Source of the DNA: Promethearchaeota archaeon | GTDB taxonomy: Archaea; Asgardarchaeota; Odinarchaeia; Odinarchaeales; JBHLKK01 | Direction of reading: 5' to 3' | Assembly: GCA_048939465.1 (NCBI GenBank) | Contig: JBHLPL010000076.1 | Coordinates: forward strand, 1 to 9,341 | Length of the DNA: 9,341 bases | Part shown: positions 1,790 through 9,078 of the stretch, one piece after another | How the letters are laid out: each line of letters begins with the position of its first letter | Numbering within the stretch: the first letter of the stretch is position 1 | Position numbers and translations under genes: made by a program | The notes under the pieces: generated by a model | What the model was told of the DNA's origin: nothing | Seen by the model: the letters and a program-made list of their open reading frames with translations, nothing else | Database searches by the model: none

Positions 1790-3373
1790 TTAATCTATGA
1801 ATTCTCTTTTTGTCTCACAGGGCTTGACATCTATCAAAACCGGGTGTTTGAACTGAGGGGATATTGCCAAAGCCTGCCCCACACTGAGAGCTGGAACTGC
1901 CGACCATATTTCTTCAATGACCCCACCAGTGGTATCCTTTATTGCATTGATATTTCCCCGACTCTTGATTGAGTGAACAATCCTCGTGTTGCATAACTCA
2001 AATATCTCCTGTGGTAGATGAGAAGGTTGTTGAGAAATAAACCCCAAGCATAGCCACCTTTTTCTGCCTCGTCTAGCAATTATCTTTAACATATCTATGG
2101 TAGAAGTCATCTTGTCTCTGGCTTCTCTGCTAATGAAAGTATGCGCTTCTTCGATTAACAGGAGAGTTTTTGGAGTTTTATCTGGAGCTTCCAATTTTCT
2201 CAGGAATATCTTTCTCAAAATAGATGCTATTACTACATTTTTGACATAATCACTGCTACTGCTTACATCGATAACACTGACCTTTCCTGGTTCTAACAGT
2301 TCATTTACGTCTATCTCACCCACATCCCTGTCGAATATCCCCAGTCTTTCAAGTTGTTTTATCTTGCCTACCAGCGCATAACCTGTTGCCTTCACAATCT
2401 TTCTATCATTTATCATTGAAAACAGTGTCTTCGTTGCTTCCCCAATTGTGTAGTCGTGCTCTTCAAAACTCGTTCCTTCTATGAATTGAACGGCCTTGCT
2501 CTTCTTCTTCGCAGTCTTCTTCTTCTTTTCTAATTCGTCCACCAGATTACTTAAACCCCTTTGCTGAGGCTCTGTAGCTTGTACTAGTTCAAAAAGAACA
2601 TAGAGATCGACACTGCTGAACTTTATGTCAAATTTCCTGGCACCTCTTCTCTTTTTGCCGTCTACCAATGGAACATCGCCACAGCACGGATAGTATACTG
2701 AAAAATCGGATAAACCATTAGGTCTCCTCTTGTATTTCTTTAGTTTTTCTATCAGCTCCTTAGTCGGATTATCCATCCCGACATATTCGCCTTCAACATC
2801 CACAACTATGACGGCATACTCTGCTTTACTTGCCTCCTCGATAATCACTTGCGCTGTGTTGGTCTTCCCTGATCCTACAGTTCCGAAAATTCCTATGTTT
2901 CTGGGTAGTACTTTCTTGTTTTGACTGTTAAGATAGATGTCTGCCTGGTCATAACCCACTATTTTTCCCATATATAGATCTCCTTCGACGCCTATCAATT
3001 CGCTGACTTCTTTTTGCTCCAACTCTGCAACTTTAGACTTTGGTGTTGGTCTAGTATTTGTTGCAACTAGCCTATTATCGACGAGTTCTCCAAAAATCTC
3101 TATACGACCCAGTGCGTAGTAATTAGGCGTTACAGGGAACTGATCGCCTTTAATTATAGTGGTCTGGGCCACTGCAGAATCTCTTCCAACCTCTTCAGGA
3201 ATATAGAACGGCCCTTCCACAACCCGTCCAATGAATGTTTTTCCATCACCTTCGATCTTTACGTATCTATTACGTAACACGGCCGAGATTTTGTCTCGGT
3301 CGACTAGAAATTCAGAGATATTATTAGGTAAACCAGATCTATCAAAATGGATGTGCCCGATCATAATCCTCAC
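1790..3373 (-). CDS. herA: HerA-family (FtsK/HerA superfamily) ATPase / DNA translocase with an N-terminal HAS-barrel-like region
   Basis: Walker A GTVGSGKT, VIVVDVEGEY strand, Walker B LLLIEEAHTF, arginine-finger region IARRGRKRW, and FISQQPSHL motif. Beta-rich N-terminal ~120 aa. GTG at 3373 overlaps the upstream TGA (GTGA); an alternative ATG at 3364 follows GGTGAGG. Confidence 0.93.
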   Translation of the reverse strand: MRIMIGHIHFDRSGLPNNISEFLVDRDKISAVLRNRYVKIEGDGKTFIGRVVEGPFYIPEEVGRDSAVAQTTIIKGDQFPVTPNYYALGRIEIFGELVDNRLVATNTRPTPKSKVAELEQKEVSELIGVEGDLYMGKIVGYDQADIYLNSQNKKVLPRNIGIFGTVGSGKTNTAQVIIEEASKAEYAVIVVDVEGEYVGMDNPTKELIEKLKKYKRRPNGLSDFSVYYPCCGDVPLVDGKKRRGARKFDIKFSSVDLYVLFELVQATEPQQRGLSNLVDELEKKKKTAKKKSKAVQFIEGTSFEEHDYTIGEATKTLFSMINDRKIVKATGYALVGKIKQLERLGIFDRDVGEIDVNELLEPGKVSVIDVSSSSDYVKNVVIASILRKIFLRKLEAPDKTPKTLLLIEEAHTFISREARDKMTSTIDMLKIIARRGRKRWLCLGFISQQPSHLPQEIFELCNTRIVHSIKSRGNINAIKDTTGGVIEEIWSAVPALSVGQALAISPQFKHPVLIDVKPCETKREFID

Positions 3374-4437
3374 CTTCTTCTCGTACGTGTTTCTTCAATT
3401 TCGCTTCCAAGGACTGAGGGATGTACTTTCGCCATCTTGAACTCAATCTTTCTTCTAAAATCACCAGCAGCCAGAAGCTTGGAGCAGATTGCGTCAGCAT
3501 AATCTATTAACATCGGGAAACCCCGTAGAGATTGGTAGCTAGAGTCTTGAATTATGAGGGCTGCAGCCTTATCAAAAACATCTTTGTGAGCCTCGAATAC
3601 GTAGGGCTTATCCCCCACCTTGTATAGGCCAATCTTAATCTTGGATACCGATTTATCCCCGAAGTCCTTCATCATTTCTTCATCTTCTTTCTTAAAATGG
3701 GCCTTCTCGAGATAGTCATCCCACTCGGCAATTAGTGAGCCGCAATCCATATATTCGAACCTATCAAGAACCTCTCCGGCATTTAGCAGATTCAGTCTTC
3801 GTGTACTTGATATTACTCCAATGACATTCGTTGCTTCGACGAGTTCCTCTGCTAATTCAAGTGAAACCTCCAACGCATCTTTGTACTTTTTGAATCTGCC
3901 TGTCCTGAGTTCGAAAGGTATTAGGGGACCATGGACAAATTTCCACTTTTCATCTCTCTGCAATACTATGTTTCTTTCCTCAAATAGCATAATGGCTCTA
4001 AGCAGTATGTTTGTCATATCATGATCCTTGAGTAGATTAGAAAAATGCTCCATAGCTGTCTTCGACTCTTCTGCGAACTTTCTTTCTGATATGAAAATAA
4101 CACGTTCTACTCTATCGTTTCTGTAAGATGTCGCTACAACACCAATTCTGCATCTGGTGCCGGTAGCCATGTTGTAGTTCGAAATAGTCCCATCCACAGC
4201 ACACACATTCGATTTGAATAACTCATTCTTGGCCCACTCTAGATCTTCTTTTGAGGGAGTCTTAATTCTTTTTTTAAAATTGGGATCTGACAATAGTTCC
4301 TTCTTCAGTTGTCTCTTTCTTTCAACAGAATCCTTGATGTCTTGTTCAATAATCTTGTCAGATTTCTCCAAGTAACCCTCGAAATTCGACCAATCTTTAG
4401 AGTATACGAGGTCTCTAAAGCTTTTGCGACTCCCCAT
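3370..4437 (-). CDS. nurA: NurA-family (RNase H-like fold) nuclease, 355 aa
   Basis: VCAVDGT (D82), MLFEER, KFVHGPLIP, IGVISST and C-terminal GFPMLIDYADAIC match the NurA layout, and the gene is directly upstream of herA. I prefer the ATG at 4437 (MGSRKSF), preceded by GGGGGGT, over the track's TTG at 4485. Confidence 0.85.
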   Translation of the reverse strand: MGSRKSFRDLVYSKDWSNFEGYLEKSDKIIEQDIKDSVERKRQLKKELLSDPNFKKRIKTPSKEDLEWAKNELFKSNVCAVDGTISNYNMATGTRCRIGVVATSYRNDRVERVIFISERKFAEESKTAMEHFSNLLKDHDMTNILLRAIMLFEERNIVLQRDEKWKFVHGPLIPFELRTGRFKKYKDALEVSLELAEELVEATNVIGVISSTRRLNLLNAGEVLDRFEYMDCGSLIAEWDDYLEKAHFKKEDEEMMKDFGDKSVSKIKIGLYKVGDKPYVFEAHKDVFDKAAALIIQDSSYQSLRGFPMLIDYADAICSKLLAAGDFRRKIEFKMAKVHPSVLGSEIEETRTRRR

Positions 4438-4483
4438 GCGACCCCCCCATAATCTAGTAGTTAATAGATATGTGAGAACAATC

Positions 4484-4499
4484 AATATAAGATTTACCG
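4484..4499 (-). promoter_or_regulatory. Putative BRE/TATA promoter for nurA-herA
   Basis: Minus strand cggtaaat-CTTATATT, about 50 nt upstream of the ATG at 4437, inside the 154-nt intergenic gap, with a G-rich SD downstream. Confidence 0.4.
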
Positions 4500-4591
4500 A
4501 CGAAAAGTATAGAATTCAATTTCAAACTTGGATGAGCCTTTTTGGAATCTTTCTTAACATTAACACCTAGGAAAACTCAAGATTGAAGGTC

Positions 4592-6358
4592 TCATATCAA
4601 TCTGTGGAAACCAATTTCAACGTTTCCGTCCTTTATTCCCCTTCTCTCAACATCACAAATGAAATCTTCACTGAAGCCCGATTTTAGATAGCTCATAAAG
4701 GTCCGACCAAGGGCACCCAGAATTGCGATGGCTCCAAGACCTGAAACATTATAGAAGCAACCCCTCATTCTCATCCTAAAACCTCTTTTTAGATCTTCGT
4801 TCACTCCTTCTGTGAAGAAATATCTGTACTTGGCCCCCCCACCGGACCAATATTCCTTTCCGGAAAAGAATCCGATTGCACTTGAGGGCCTTAACGCCAA
4901 TAGAACATCAGCGATAATCTTGTCCAATCTGTGGACCCTCCAGTGCTCTGCGATTTCATCTTCCATTTTTGCCTCGTACCTGTGTAGGGGATCAAATGCA
5001 TCTACTAGGCCGTACCATGCAGAAATTATGAAAAGCTTTAGTCTGCCTTCTCGGATTGAGCCCAAAACGTCGTTGAGGTCAAATTGCCTGTAGATGGTTC
5101 CTTTGTAGAGGTGAATTGCCGAAGTCTTAGGAGAATTAAGATCTATATCAACATCACTTCTTTCAGCAGCTATTCTATCCATCCCGTTCCTGCCCTCCAT
5201 CAATAGATTCCATGCGTATGGTAACTCCTTTTCTGTCAAACCTCTCCCTTCTTCCTCGATGCGTCCGGATGGATTTTTCGTCTTACAGCAAGGGATGAAA
5301 CAAACAACACGGGGTCCTGCAGCCCTTCCCCTGTCCCCTCCCGATACTGGAGAAATCGATTTTGCCAGCTCTCTATCCACGATCTGTTTGAATTCCGATA
5401 TCTCCTGAGATGTCAAGATTCTTGAGCTATCTACGTACTGTGAATTCCATAACCCCGATCTTCTTACCTTTTCTTTGGGTGAAAGGTGGCCAAGCCAATT
5501 GGGAGAGGGCGTGATCTGAGAGCATTTTGCCAAAGTGGCTATTAGTCTTTCCTCGAGGTTTCTCCTATCTTTGTTGGACTCAACTGTTATGCAACTAAAC
5601 GTGAACCTTTCCTTCAACACCTTGCTTACTTCTTTTTCAATCTCAGGGAACGTAGGTGCATTCTGTGTATCCCACTGTTCAAGTCTGGGATCGTTAAGAT
5701 ACTTCCTTCTGGTCAGGACCCCACCTAAACGCATGCGAAATATACTTGAGTTTTTGTTTCCTCTAAAATGATGCCGGATTCTTCTCCTGAAGTTGTCCTG
5801 TTTACTATTAGTTCCGACTCGCACAATCCTTCGGTAGATTATACCATCGATTCTACAGCGTTCCCCATTCTCAAAGAAAAAATAAATTCCATTCTCTGGA
5901 AGTCTATTCTCTGGTGTTCTAGAATCATAGACCGGGAGTTTTTCAACTGTTTTGTGAATCTCTTCACATATTCTATTGATTTCAGTTTGCGTGGTTAAAT
6001 CTCTTTTATCTTCTGGTAGTGGTTTGGCTTGAGCAATAAATCGTTCTTCTCTAGAGATCAACTTGACGGCAAGACGCAGTTTTCCGGAAATTGCTAGCCG
6101 AAATTGTGAGTCTCCGCAATCTTTCATGACATTGTAACTGAGTAGAATTCTGCCCAAAGATTTTGCATGCGCCATTCCTCCGAGTCTAAGTCCTTGTTTG
6201 GAAATCTCTACGATTCCATGCCAGCTACCTCTTTTACCATAATTCTGCAAATCAGAAACATCCAGGCTGCTGCTTAATCCCGTCTCAAATGCTTCATTAA
6301 TTAGTCTCTTGACAGAGTCTAGTCTTCCTTTCCAGTACTTGTCATATTTACTCCCCAT
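4592..6358 (-). CDS. Multidomain protein: unknown N-terminal domain + GIY-YIG-like nuclease + YaaA/DUF6884-like C-terminal domain (588 aa)
   Basis: NGIYFFFE (G157)...IVRVGT (R180), FRRRIRHH, NLEERLI and GLWNSQ fit GIY-YIG catalytic positions. From aa 351, VVCFIPCCKTK...AIHLYKG...LFIISAWYGLV...LHRYEAKM fits the YaaA/DUF328/DUF6884 pattern. ATG is preceded by GGGGAG. Confidence 0.8.
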   Translation of the reverse strand: MGSKYDKYWKGRLDSVKRLINEAFETGLSSSLDVSDLQNYGKRGSWHGIVEISKQGLRLGGMAHAKSLGRILLSYNVMKDCGDSQFRLAISGKLRLAVKLISREERFIAQAKPLPEDKRDLTTQTEINRICEEIHKTVEKLPVYDSRTPENRLPENGIYFFFENGERCRIDGIIYRRIVRVGTNSKQDNFRRRIRHHFRGNKNSSIFRMRLGGVLTRRKYLNDPRLEQWDTQNAPTFPEIEKEVSKVLKERFTFSCITVESNKDRRNLEERLIATLAKCSQITPSPNWLGHLSPKEKVRRSGLWNSQYVDSSRILTSQEISEFKQIVDRELAKSISPVSGGDRGRAAGPRVVCFIPCCKTKNPSGRIEEEGRGLTEKELPYAWNLLMEGRNGMDRIAAERSDVDIDLNSPKTSAIHLYKGTIYRQFDLNDVLGSIREGRLKLFIISAWYGLVDAFDPLHRYEAKMEDEIAEHWRVHRLDKIIADVLLALRPSSAIGFFSGKEYWSGGGAKYRYFFTEGVNEDLKRGFRMRMRGCFYNVSGLGAIAILGALGRTFMSYLKSGFSEDFICDVERRGIKDGNVEIGFHRLI

Positions 6359-6383
6359 AAGAAACTCCCCTACCTTGTTTGCT

Positions 6384-6392
6384 ATTTAATAT
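6384..6392 (-). promoter_or_regulatory. Putative TATA box for the 588-aa gene
   Basis: Minus strand ATATTAAAT, centred about 30 nt upstream of the ATG at 6358. Confidence 0.35.
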
Positions 6393-6452
6393 CCAAAGGT
6401 CGTTTTCCTCCACCCAAATAACCGTCCACACAACAATACCTGCTTTGAAGTC

Positions 6453-6490
6453 TTTTATAACACATGTGCAATAAATAACTAACAGGTGAG
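6453..6490 (+). promoter_or_regulatory. TATA box (TTTTATAA) plus Shine-Dalgarno (AGGTGAG) for the 40-aa ORF
   Basis: The box at 6453-6460 places a start site near 6483, just before the SD at 6484-6490 and the ATG at 6497. Confidence 0.5.
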
Positions 6491-6496
6491 TAACAA

Positions 6497-6619
6497 ATGT
6501 CGGGAAGAGAAGGTATCGGCACGTGGCCCACACCGGAAAAGAGGAGAAAGATCATCAAAATAATAGAAGAAGTGATTGAAAGGCTAGGACGGTTAAGGGA
6601 GTTGCTCGAAGAAAGATAG
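6497..6619 (+). CDS. Small 40-aa helical protein (below the ORF-track cutoff)
   Basis: MSGREGIGTWPTPEKRRKIIKIIEEVIERLGRLRELLEER. Strong SD AGGTGAG at 6484-6490 and TTTTATAA at 6453-6460. Amphipathic heptad-like pattern. Converges on the 6632-6976 gene. Confidence 0.6.
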   Translation: MSGREGIGTWPTPEKRRKIIKIIEEVIERLGRLRELLEER

Positions 6620-6631
6620 ACACTCTCTCCA

Positions 6632-6976
6632 CTACAAACCATTCATTCTTTTTCTTCGCACCCTTTCGCAAACATAAACTGCCGCACAAGACACAAGATA
6701 CCAGAAGACAAGGTCCACAACAAGGTTCATCGGAAAGAAACCCAGCGGTTCCCCTGGTAACAAAGCCCCCCCTGTTCCATCGATTGTCAAGAACGATAGG
6801 GGGAGTCCATGGTGTATGAGAACGGGAGAAGTAAAGAACATGTTTCTACCCCATATCCAGTACCAGATAGAAAACCAGAACAGATCATAAACACAGCTAG
6901 ATAGGAAAAGGAGAGCAAAAACCCCCATCTTTTTCTTATCTGCTCCGAAGAATCGCTTGACTACCTCTCTGCTCAT
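6632..6976 (-). CDS. Small integral membrane protein (about 2-3 hydrophobic segments), unknown function
   Basis: 114-aa ORF with a basic N-terminus, hydrophobic segments (GVFALLFLSSCVYDLFWFSIWYWIW; NLVVDLVFWYLVSCAAVYVC) and a basic tail. A TATA-like box lies about 25 nt upstream of the ATG. Confidence 0.75.
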   Translation of the reverse strand: MSREVVKRFFGADKKKMGVFALLFLSSCVYDLFWFSIWYWIWGRNMFFTSPVLIHHGLPLSFLTIDGTGGALLPGEPLGFFPMNLVVDLVFWYLVSCAAVYVCERVRRKRMNGL

Positions 6977-7124: not shown

Positions 7125-7514
7125 TTGAGTACACGTGATAGAAAAGCCAGTGGTGTCATAGGTGGCTTGATGATACTCTTATTATTGGCACTTTACGGAT
7201 TCAGGTTTATTTCACGAATATTCGAATCGATTTCATTCGAAGTTATCTCCGTGTTCTTCATTTTTTTTGGCCTGGTGGGCATAATAATCTTTGGTATGTA
7301 CAGGTCTTCATCAAGACTAGCAGAGGTAGATGAACCTATGGATGATCCTACCACTAGCCCTGTTTACCACGAGGAATCAGCCCCCAAAGACTTCCAGTCA
7401 AAAACGCCGATGCTTTCGTGTCCTCATTGCGGTTATGAGAACCCGGCCGATGCTGATTTTTGCATAAGATGCGGTCGAGACCTGGATGTAACAGATGATG
7501 TAGCTCGATATTGA
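7125..7514 (+). CDS. Two-TM membrane protein with C-terminal zinc ribbon (zinc_ribbon_2/DZANK-like), paralog 1
   Basis: Two hydrophobic helices, an acidic/Pro linker and CPHCGYENPADADFCIRCGRDL. TTG start after GGAGGAGGGG. Confidence 0.85.
   Translation: MSTRDRKASGVIGGLMILLLLALYGFRFISRIFESISFEVISVFFIFFGLVGIIIFGMYRSSSRLAEVDEPMDDPTTSPVYHEESAPKDFQSKTPMLSCPHCGYENPADADFCIRCGRDLDVTDDVARY
7414..7480 (+). repeat. Dispersed direct repeat with 8975-9041 (zinc-ribbon coding region)
   Basis: 61 of 67 nt are identical by manual alignment, including an exact 23-mer gatgctgatttttgcataagatg (7449-7471 = 9010-9032). A second exact 15-mer, caggtcttcatcaag, occurs at 7301-7315 and 8862-8876. Confidence 0.9.
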
Positions 7515-7783
7515 GATCCGATTTTTTCTCTTGATTCATTATCTCACTCCAGTGGTATAAGCTCCAGACAGTCATCCTCTCTACCACCACCGATCCTTAT
7601 AGCCCTTCTTCTTCAATTCTACCTCTTCAAAGCCTTCAGGGTGTCTATCAAATCATCAAAAGCCATCCACTCAAAATCTCTTATATTCCAGAGAATTCCC
7701 CCTCACGCTCCAAAGGAAGGTCTGGTAAAAAAGCTAATATCTGACATACAGACACAGGGATTGCATGGAGGGGGTGATGGCTG

Positions 7784-8080
7784 ATGTATTTGGGTTTGGT
7801 ACTTCTAGTCGTGGGCATCCTTTCAATCTTATTCAGTCAATTGGCATTCTGGTTCAGGCTCCGTATGGAGTATGGCGGTGTAAAAAAGGCTTTTTTGCTG
7901 ATATTCGCGACTCGTTATGATGCCTCAGAAGAGGATATCAGAAAGGCTTCCGAGACTGAACTTGAAAAGCACCTCGAGAAGTTCCCGCTTGCTGAACGGT
8001 TATTCAACGTCCTTTATGGCAGCATTATCGGTCTTTTTTGTATACTTATGGGTGTCATACTTTCGGGATTAGGGATTTGA
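7784..8080 (+). CDS. Small membrane protein (N- and C-terminal TM helices around a charged loop)
   Basis: 98-aa ORF with SD GGAGGGGGTGA upstream. MYLGLVLLVVGILSILFSQLAFWF and LYGSIIGLFCILMGVILSGLGI are hydrophobic. Confidence 0.75.
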   Translation: MYLGLVLLVVGILSILFSQLAFWFRLRMEYGGVKKAFLLIFATRYDASEEDIRKASETELEKHLEKFPLAERLFNVLYGSIIGLFCILMGVILSGLGI

Positions 8081-8144
8081 GAAATAAGATCCTTGAGGTT
8101 GTCCTTCTATTCCTGAGATATAGTCTAAAAGAAATCCAGTTACT

Positions 8145-8183
8145 AAAACACCAGCAAAACAAGATTTGCAAAAATCTTTTTAG
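8145..8183 (+). repeat. Conserved upstream element, copy 2 (before paralog 2)
   Basis: aaaacaccagcaaaacaagatttgcaaaaatctttttag aligns closely with aaaacaccaacaaagcaagatctgcaaagtttttttag at 8614-8651. Confidence 0.75.
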
Positions 8184-8219
8184 CTTTGATATCACAGTTC
8201 TTGTTGGGGGAGTAGTAGT

Positions 8220-8597
8220 ATGAGTGATTCTAGTATGAGTGATTCTGAATTGGGGGCTCGGATTGCCCTACGTGTGCTGTTAACACTCGCTCTAGTATCA
8301 TTGGTTGTATTAGCGTTAGGATTAGCAGGTTTACCATGGTTCATCATAGGAGGTATAGCGATGGTTGCAATACTGGTCCTGGCGGCTTCATATCGATTTC
8401 AATTTTCAGTTGAACCTATAATTGAACCTACAACGGGATCCACTCTTGAAGAAGAAGATACATTAGAAGAAAGCAAAATCGAAACGACTGACCAATTGGT
8501 GCCTTCCGAAATCTCTTGTTCCAAATGTGGCTATAAGAACCCAAGTGATGCGCAATTCTGTATAAGGTGCGGTCGGGATCTAGAGGGAAGCCTATAA
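8220..8597 (+). CDS. Two-TM membrane protein with C-terminal zinc ribbon, paralog 2
   Basis: TM hairpin, acidic linker and CSKCGYKNPSDAQFCIRCGRDL. GGGGGAG upstream. Confidence 0.85.
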   Translation: MSDSSMSDSELGARIALRVLLTLALVSLVVLALGLAGLPWFIIGGIAMVAILVLAASYRFQFSVEPIIEPTTGSTLEEEDTLEESKIETTDQLVPSEISCSKCGYKNPSDAQFCIRCGRDLEGSL

Positions 8598-8613
8598 TCT
8601 TCATCCAATTATC

Positions 8614-8672
8614 AAAACACCAACAAAGCAAGATCTGCAAAGTTTTTTTAGTGTTAATTCGATAGTTAGTTG
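8614..8672 (+). repeat. Conserved upstream element, copy 3 (before paralog 3)
   Basis: Its 5' half matches copy 2 and its 3' half matches copy 1. Confidence 0.8.
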
Positions 8673-8679
8673 TGAGGGG

Positions 8680-9078
8680 ATGAGGAGTTTGAGTGAATGG
8701 TATAGAAAAACTGTCAGCATCATTGGTGCTGTGGTGATGCTCCTGGCATTGGCATTTTGTGGATTTATGGCATCGTTGCAAACATTCGGGGAGCCTTTCT
8801 TCACACTTATCCCCGTATTCGTTTTTATATTTGCCCTTCTGGGCTTGCAGGTCTTTGCCCGCAGGTCTTCATCAAGGGAAGCAGAGGTAGCTGAACTTGT
8901 GGCAGATTCTACCCCTGCCCCCTTTTATTATGAGGAAGCAAAACCCGAAGAAGTTGAATCAGAAACACCTATGGTTTCGTGTCCTGATTGCGGTTACGAG
9001 AACCCAGGGGATGCTGATTTTTGCATAAGATGTGGTCGAGATTTAGACATCAAAGATGACACAGCTCGATACCTATAA
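8680..9078 (+). CDS. Two-TM membrane protein with C-terminal zinc ribbon, paralog 3
   Basis: TM hairpin, RRSSSR stop-transfer segment, linker and CPDCGYENPGDADFCIRCGRDL. GAGGGG directly upstream; the TTG at 8689 aligns with the paralog 1 start. Confidence 0.85.
   Translation: MRSLSEWYRKTVSIIGAVVMLLALAFCGFMASLQTFGEPFFTLIPVFVFIFALLGLQVFARRSSSREAEVAELVADSTPAPFYYEEAKPEEVESETPMVSCPDCGYENPGDADFCIRCGRDLDIKDDTARYL

Follow-up and report, generated by a model that had tools for sequence, protein, structure and literature searches.

A single-chain, DUF7664-bearing form of the PDC-M57-type putative nuclease cassette in a Promethearchaeota archaeon

What a nuclease-like domain and a domain of the YaaA/DUF6884 fold do together on one polypeptide is the question raised by a gene of a Promethearchaeota archaeon, located on the minus strand of contig JBHLPL010000076.1. 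The window, that is the whole stretch of DNA that was analysed, is the entire contig of 9,341 bp; the assembly that contains it is 1.96 Mb in size and 91% complete, and the gene is present in this genome as a single copy. The archaeal origin was shown by a TATA-binding protein encoded in the assembly, a marker detected among the control genomes in the four archaeal ones only; an SSU rRNA gene is absent from the assembly. According to the open reading frame (ORF) list and the translation, it occupies positions 4592..6358 and codes for a protein of 588 amino acids, here labelled P0001, in which a DUF7664 domain is followed by a GIY-YIG-like domain of the PDC-M57B type and by a YaaA/DUF6884-like domain. 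The pairing of the last two modules is already known as the catalogue entry PDC-M57, where A is a DUF6884 protein and B a divergent GIY-YIG-type nuclease; P0001 is a single-chain form of such a cassette, with the modules in the order B-A and an archaeal DUF7664 in front. The single-chain B-A form, a long YaaA-type reader that is missed by the PDC-M57A model, and the added DUF7664 are new here.

Three domains follow one another along the chain, and their assignments exceed chance by far. DUF7664 comprises residues 1-100 (6059..6358, minus strand; Pfam PF24701, E 6.4e-31), and the GIY-YIG-fold nuclease-like domain spans residues ~125-335 (5354..5984, minus strand), as defined by the PDC-M57B match, an AF2 model, a structural ranking with VIA and residue conservation. 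A Gly/Arg/Pro-rich linker, PVSGGDRGRAAGP, corresponds to residues 337-349 (5312..5350, minus strand) and was recognized from its motif position and from a drop of the pLDDT, which falls to 66 at the end of the nuclease model and to 78 at the start of the YaaA-like model; its length differs among the homologues. The rest of the protein, residues 350-588 (4595..5311, minus strand), is a YaaA/DUF6884-fold domain in its long form, supported by Pfam, by a profile comparison with the E. coli YaaA structure 5caj, and by AF2, Foldseek and VIA. A preliminary description of this DNA had placed the upper coordinate at 5890, which is the G of GIY, and therefore left out the first 156 residues, its span being residues 157-588; the N-terminal DUF7664 domain and the PADLOC listing of the pair as PDC-M57 were overlooked. 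Homologues of P0001 number 39 in a set of 5.8 billion proteins and most of them share the three-part layout, the closest ones (P0005-P0012) being 36-59% identical; in a profile search, 5,576 representative clusters had a match to at least one of its three domains. The relatives returned by a metagenome scan with P0001 were all distant or partial, and a PDB sequence search with P0001 alone gave no match.

Residues 128-327 of P0001 carry the precomputed label PF26468 and match the PADLOC family PDC-M57B (PDLC04713/04714) with an E-value of 7e-43, the alignment running from position 2 to 209 of the 211-position profile, and the only Pfam signal in this region is a match to GIY_YIG_2 that stays below the threshold (E 3e-4, 21.1 bits versus a cut-off of 22.4). 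The AF2 model of the domain (pLDDT 96.5, pTM 0.92) was aligned exhaustively by VIA to 48,161 PDB representatives, and the best six structures are all GIY-YIG folds, with Z between 4.2 and 5.8: T4 EndoII (5.8), the UvrC N-domain (5.2), I-TevI (5.0), a plant Grx GIY-YIG-like domain (4.8), R.Eco29kI (4.5) and PD-T4-3, which is specific for 5-hydroxymethylcytosine (9u75; 4.2). Slx1, HIGLE and Hpy188I are found lower in the same list. Although none of these Z values is high, GIY-YIG folds are strikingly enriched at the top of the ranking. A PDB search with the profile of the domain returned chance-level matches only (ORF134, E 0.036). The assignment to the GIY-YIG family, which the preliminary description had proposed and which our analysis bears out, draws on the motifs, on the order of structures in VIA and on the weak match in Pfam.

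An alignment of 78 sequences from bacterial and archaeal genomes, having 25-51% identity to the query, defines the conserved residues of the domain. G157-I158-Y159 (window 5882-5890) is invariant in all 78 sequences, and the second hairpin motif is R180-V-G182, with an arginine in 76/78 where YIG has its tyrosine. Between GIY (residues 157-159) and RVG (residues 180-182) the spacer is about 20 residues long, as already noticed in the preliminary description, versus the usual ~10; in the AF2 model the two motifs are carried by the hairpin strands 158-170 and 173-183. These are followed by the helix 190-199, containing R193 (76/78) and H197 (78/78) in an R193-x3-H197 arrangement, and, after a strand at 252-257, by the helix 262-277, which contains E269 (76/78). 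This order of elements (beta-beta-alpha-...-beta-alpha) fits the GIY-YIG family. Three additional acidic residues, E163, E166 and E241, are invariant in the 78 sequences, and R177, W288-L-G290 and W304 are also conserved. Compared with T4 EndoII, the UvrC N-domain, I-TevI, R.Eco29kI and PD-T4-3, P0001 has the tyrosine of GIY, the Arg-x3-His and the helix glutamate at the expected places; unlike the canonical enzymes, its hairpin is approximately twice as long, the YIG tyrosine is replaced by arginine, the three extra glutamates are present, and the canonical asparagine is unconserved, since N305 occurs in P0001 but its column holds Asn in 33/78 and Leu in 35/78 sequences. On the model and the conservation pattern, the domain is read as a divergent but probably active GIY-YIG nuclease.

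The C-terminal domain matches Pfam YaaA (PF03883) with E 8.7e-7 and 29.1 bits, versus a cut-off of 29.6, a score that rises to 30.7 bits in a six-frame search of the genome, and Pfam DUF6884 (PF21818) with E 1.2e-3 and 19.5 bits, versus a cut-off of 30. A profile of the family aligns with E. coli YaaA (5caj) at E 7.9e-6, bringing the LYxGxxY, SxxYG and xYxxxM motifs into register. With the AF2 model (pLDDT 95.1), 5caj is the top structure both in Foldseek (E 4.3e-6; runner-up 1.7e-2) and in VIA, where it is aligned over 209/244 residues with a Z of 13.4 and a root mean square deviation of 3.9 (runner-up Z 8.1). These results agree with the YaaA/DUF6884-like assignment of the preliminary description, and the alpha/beta "cantaloupe" fold of YaaA is thus predicted to be present in the C-terminal domain. 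The sequence motifs that had been quoted for this domain are all found at their places: IPCCKTK at 355-361, LYKG at 417-420, IISAWYGL at 444-451 and RYEAKM at 460-465.

In the alignment of this domain, which contains 32 sequences, the CxxxK motif is C357-C-K-T-K361, with the cysteine in 31/32 and the lysine in 32/32, and the SAxxG motif is S446-A447-W-Y-G450, with serine and glycine in 32/32; Y418 and Y461 are invariant, and a further motif is L417-Y418-x-G420-x2-Y423. DUF6884 has been described as a distant relative of YaaA, the conserved CxxxK and LSAxxG motifs of which may form an active site (PMC11701544). Judged from the alignment, the set C357, K361, Y418, S446 and Y461 resembles an active site more than a passive reader, which suggests that this domain may have an enzymatic activity of its own. 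E. coli YaaA (DUF328) and B. subtilis YfjM (DUF6884) share the fold and the core motifs of the P0001 domain; however, both occur as separate proteins and have been associated with stress or lesions, whereas the reader of P0001 is tethered to a nuclease and encoded by an accessory gene.

The best precedent for recognition of DNA at the level of a single base by the DUF6884/YaaA fold is DpdC, of the Dpd 7-deazaguanine system. DpdC carries a DUF6884 domain and, without the help of further proteins, turns preQ0 that is already part of the DNA into ADG; since the base is edited inside duplex DNA, the fold is able to address a single DNA base. P0001 shares with DpdC the DUF6884-type domain and differs from it in that it does not match the DpdC models, has no dpdA or dpdB as neighbours and has a nuclease as partner. 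No TGT-like or DndB-like gene was found in the window, nor is a dpdA or dpdB gene present beside the P0001 gene. Stand-alone reader partners in related loci show weak matches to DpdC (E ~1e-3). A specific DpdC-like reader of 7-deazaguanine was considered for P0001 and is unsupported; as the DpdC models are not matched, nothing points specifically to 7-deazaguanine as the target of this copy.

Whether the two modules belong together can be judged from related loci. When each species was represented by a single genome, a scan yielded 469 loci with the nuclease domain; the pairing was counted in the best 80, with reader modules called by hidden Markov models built from our own alignments, plus Pfam for two cases. 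A DUF6884/YaaA-like module accompanies the nuclease domain in 68 of these 80 loci, in both Bacteria and Archaea and in either order. The reader is fused after the nuclease (B-A) in nine loci, two of them also with DUF7664, and before it (A-B) in eight; most frequently, in 38 loci, it is coded by a gene of its own immediately upstream, the two frequently sharing a few bases, and in eight by one immediately downstream. Readers are found on both sides in three loci and nearby in two; no reader was found in the remaining 12, several of which are truncated or broken. In one locus (L018), the upstream partner matches PDC-M57A with E 1.6e-15 and DUF6884 with E 6.3e-17. The long (~240 residues) and short (~132 residues) forms of the reader are related at the profile level (hhalign E 5e-5, probability 67.5%). 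That the two domains work together, as the preliminary description had supposed, is supported by this recurrent fusion or adjacency.

The two-gene form is found, for example, in Bacillota such as Desulfofundulus, in which a 240-residue reader is 43% identical to the C-terminal domain of P0001. Further loci of this kind (L007-L011, L014 and L016, at ~10000-11500), from Bacillota and from a gammaproteobacterial metagenome-assembled genome (MAG), encode 240-residue readers with 36-44% identity to the same domain, and this identity with an archaeal protein suggests transfer between two domains of life. A locus from a Thermodesulfobacteriales MAG (L066) contains a YaaA-like protein (2357-3463) with a weak, sub-cut-off match to a YoeB/RelE-type toxin at its C-terminus (E 5e-3), and directly downstream of this gene a 575-residue nuclease-YaaA fusion (3473-5200); judged from sequence, one reader fold is apparently wired here to two different effectors. 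Homologues also carry variable accessory domains, including SHOCT and zinc ribbons.

PADLOC lists 145 phage defence candidates, PDC-M57 among them; according to the authors these were not experimentally tested, and the PDC systems came from genes lying inside BREX, DISARM and type I restriction-modification (RM) systems (Payne et al. 2024 preprint, 10.1101/2024.01.29.577857). P0001 resembles PDC-M57 in that its nuclease belongs to the PDC-M57B family and its partner is a module of the DUF6884 superfamily; it differs in being one B-A polypeptide, in its long reader of ~240 residues and in the extra DUF7664.

The P0001 gene is accessory and patchily distributed. Within the order it is present in one of seven genomes, and four of the other six are 93-98% complete; within the phylum, any match was found in 8/400 genomes, none of them full-length. 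A search of 50,697 phage records gave no match to P0001, and plasmids gave seven weak matches, mostly haloarchaeal. Among 125 randomly sampled ORFs that neighbour the cassette in other genomes, phage integrase is the commonest Pfam family (4), and the sample also includes components of type I RM systems, the Hma ATPase and helicase families (UvrD, ResIII, SLFN-type).

What is established is that P0001 has three domains of the folds described, that sets of residues are conserved in them, that the two modules are repeatedly linked and that the gene is accessory and patchily distributed; DNA binding, base flipping, nuclease activity, a target preference and a defence role are what we infer for P0001. 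With moderate confidence, we favour the view that P0001 is a DNA-targeting defence nuclease, whose YaaA-fold domain would inspect or chemically engage a flipped base and would thereby license the tethered GIY-YIG domain. The YaaA-fold domain would bind DNA in a basic cleft, and a base would be flipped into a pocket formed by C357, K361, Y418, S446 and Y461; the recognition of a particular base state, or a chemical reaction on the base, would then license the GIY-YIG domain to cut nearby, with Y159, R193, H197 and E269 as candidate catalytic residues and Arg180 at the place usually taken by the second tyrosine. The outcome would be the destruction of invading DNA. A logic of sensor plus effector is suggested by the fusions in both orders, the toxin-like match in L066, the variable accessory domains and the accessory distribution.

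The preliminary description had taken the YaaA-like domain for a sensor of damaged or modified DNA, for which relevant precedents, DpdC and YfjM, are few, and had likened the protein to type IV enzymes; a type IV-like dependence on modification is, by analogy, a plausible version of the favoured reading. GIY-YIG nucleases with reader domains are known to act as type IV enzymes (PMC11037411; PD-T4-3, 9u75); P0001 resembles the winged-helix-GIY-YIG enzymes that depend on N6-methyladenine, in which a DNA-reading domain is tethered to a non-specific nuclease domain, although its YaaA "cantaloupe" reader is without precedent as a modification reader for a nuclease.

Several points weigh against a defence nuclease of this kind. 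No PDC-M57 member has been tested, and the defence role is therefore guilt by association. P0001 and its neighbours show no match to PDC-M57A (PDLC04712, 138 positions) at E <= 0.1, and at the same threshold P0001 shows none to the PADLOC DpdC models. Structurally, the nuclease domain resembles GIY-YIG folds to a modest degree (VIA Z <= 5.8), and Foldseek gave nothing significant with the nuclease model (E >= 0.24), its best rows being R.Eco29kI (E 0.24) and UvrC. The catalytic residues were mapped by the order of secondary-structure elements and not by residue-level superposition; because the tyrosine of the second motif is replaced by arginine and the asparagine is unconserved, we can only infer catalytic competence. 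The tallies of neighbouring genes (PADLOC, Pfam) are descriptive, without a control set or a figure for how many members have any match, and many of the sampled cassette neighbours are housekeeping genes. Finally, published work connects YaaA and YfjM with oxidative stress and with lesions in DNA, and this would speak for repair instead.

The main rival explanation is a DNA repair enzyme, the YaaA fold of which would recognize a lesion, such as an abasic site, an embedded ribonucleotide or an oxidised base, and the GIY-YIG domain of which would nick next to this lesion, like the N-domain of UvrC during excision repair. Such a role is suggested by what has been published on YaaA and YfjM, the latter being listed among lesion interactors in the Pfam paper (PMC11701544); in the structural ranking the GIY-YIG domain of UvrC comes second (Z 5.2), and many housekeeping genes adjoin the related loci. 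However, a repair function fits poorly with the patchy spread described above, the gene being absent from the six other genomes of the order and matched in only 8/400 of the phylum, and with the discovery of the cassette inside BREX, DISARM or type I RM systems; the readers fused to a RelE/YoeB-like toxin and accompanied by variable accessory domains, as well as the integrases as commonest neighbour family, also argue against it. Repair is thus possible but rather unlikely.

The invariant residues of the C-terminal domain lead to another reading, in which the YaaA/DUF6884-fold domain would be an enzyme and Cys357, Lys361, Ser446 and Tyr461 would attack a flipped and probably hypermodified base, for example a 7-deazaguanine derivative, resulting in its excision, covalent capture or conversion; the GIY-YIG domain would then turn this event into a strand break. 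We consider this doubtful, somewhat more so than repair; if true, P0001 would represent a new class, a restriction enzyme coupled to base chemistry in one polypeptide.

The same residues, C357, K361, S446 and Y461, nearly or fully invariant, are also compatible with a self-contained modify-and-cut system, in which the DUF6884-type domain, acting like DpdC, would chemically mark a base of the host DNA and the nuclease would cut DNA without this mark. DpdC, the sole DUF6884-bearing protein for which biochemistry was found, does modify a DNA base, and the stand-alone partners match it weakly; P0001 itself, however, does not, and DpdC requires preQ0 inserted by DpdA and DpdB, which are not encoded beside the P0001 gene. 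Moreover, one chain could not easily balance modification versus restriction, and this explanation appears improbable.

A similarly low probability is assigned to a toxin-antitoxin or abortive-infection module, in which a nuclease toxin would be kept inactive by the DUF6884 part until infection. The usual layout of the related loci, with a small upstream gene overlapping the nuclease gene, recalls such pairs, and so does the related reader fused to a YoeB/RelE-like domain; nevertheless, stable fusions in both orders, as observed in 17/80 loci, are unusual for them, and the reader combines a conserved enzyme-like pocket with a DNA-binding fold, which is not a typical antitoxin fold. A selfish homing endonuclease of the GIY-YIG class, suggested by the presence of the I-TevI catalytic domain among the top structural matches (Z 5.0), is hardly credible, as the gene lies outside any intron or intein, neither repeats nor a target duplication flank it, the phage records gave no match, and the nuclease is always linked to a YaaA-type module and not to the DNA-binding domains of homing enzymes.

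The DUF6884/YaaA fold occurs widely, yet little is understood of it, DpdC being the only member found with a shown enzymatic reaction; its recurrent pairing with the nuclease, in both orders and in both Bacteria and Archaea, speaks for a shared and so far uncharacterised way of targeting DNA. The natural single-chain form is the simplest test object for the family, as it consists of one gene whose halves are separable at the linker, and each domain offers targets for point mutants: Y159, R193, H197 and E269 in the nuclease, C357, K361, S446 and Y461 in the reader. If P0001 is indeed a modification- or lesion-guided nuclease, the YaaA fold would gain a function, a candidate defence system would be validated and, perhaps, a reagent for the detection of modified bases would be obtained.

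The N-terminal domain is not specific to the nuclease subtype of P0001, as DUF7664 also precedes other GIY-YIG subtypes in two loci. In L135, from the same phylum, a DUF6884 gene (807-1295, E 1.5e-17) overlaps by 4 nucleotides a gene (1292-2179) coding for DUF7664 and a classical GVY...YIG GIY-YIG domain, so that the cassette design recurs here with a different subtype of nuclease; in L140, a DUF7664 protein has a GVY...KVG-type domain, again of another subtype. DUF7664 thus looks like a dedicated N-terminal partner of archaeal GIY-YIG nucleases, and a role in DNA binding or oligomerisation may be guessed. An ESM Atlas query with the DUF7664 part gave no usable lead. Some DUF6884 partners (L018:9151-9981, P0038 and P0026) have a conserved C-terminal tail of ~70 residues with the pattern ...G-Y-P-G-x-N-H-R-M-x-x-C-C-x-x-M ... 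I-R-Y-x-L, which matches the DUF7664 profile weakly (E 2e-4) and may be a distant relative of this domain.

Downstream of the P0001 gene and on the same strand, three genes are found: a NurA-like gene (3370-4485, minus), a gene for a HerA ATPase (1790-3373, minus; Pfam), and one for a DCD (EVE-like) domain joined to an N6/N4 DNA methyltransferase, which is cut by the contig end (2-1201, minus; Pfam). All 30 feature matches of the NurA-like gene in the ESM Atlas are NurA, with a score of 0.96, and Pfam and NCBIfam give no NurA match; its TTG start is doubtful, and the Atlas record begins at residue 17, an ATG. The NurA-like and HerA genes overlap by 4 nucleotides (start/stop), and no Mre11 or Rad50 is present in the window. 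The preliminary description had regarded the YaaA-like domain as a second candidate reader beside the DCD-methylase, but a link of the two as readers of one system does not hold: in the 80 related loci there is no match to NurA or HerA, and the methylase is represented by three weak partial matches, so that a single NurA-HerA-methylase-nuclease system, the partners of which do not co-occur, was rejected. The two full-length relatives with flanks (L002, L003) have other neighbours, namely NYN, HNH_2, HATPase_c_3, DUF5677 and SNase, with NYN, HNH and HATPase_c_3 in L002. The missing co-occurrence and the different neighbours indicate that the P0001 gene is a self-contained unit in a variable region. 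A TATA-like, AT-rich box ~30 nucleotides before the ATG and a gap of 107 nucleotides after the stop suggest, from sequence, that it has its own transcription unit.

Directly upstream of the P0001 gene and on the same strand lie two small overlapping ORFs (6382-6976, minus), which showed no family match and no match in the related loci; one codes for 114 residues and resembles a hydrophobic membrane peptide, the other for 86 residues, is rich in Cys and Ser and is doubtful. On the opposite strand, the region 7125-9078 (plus) contains three paralogous genes of ~125-132 residues with C-terminal zinc ribbons (Zn_Ribbon_1, DUF7577, DUF7575) and a fourth small ORF between them.

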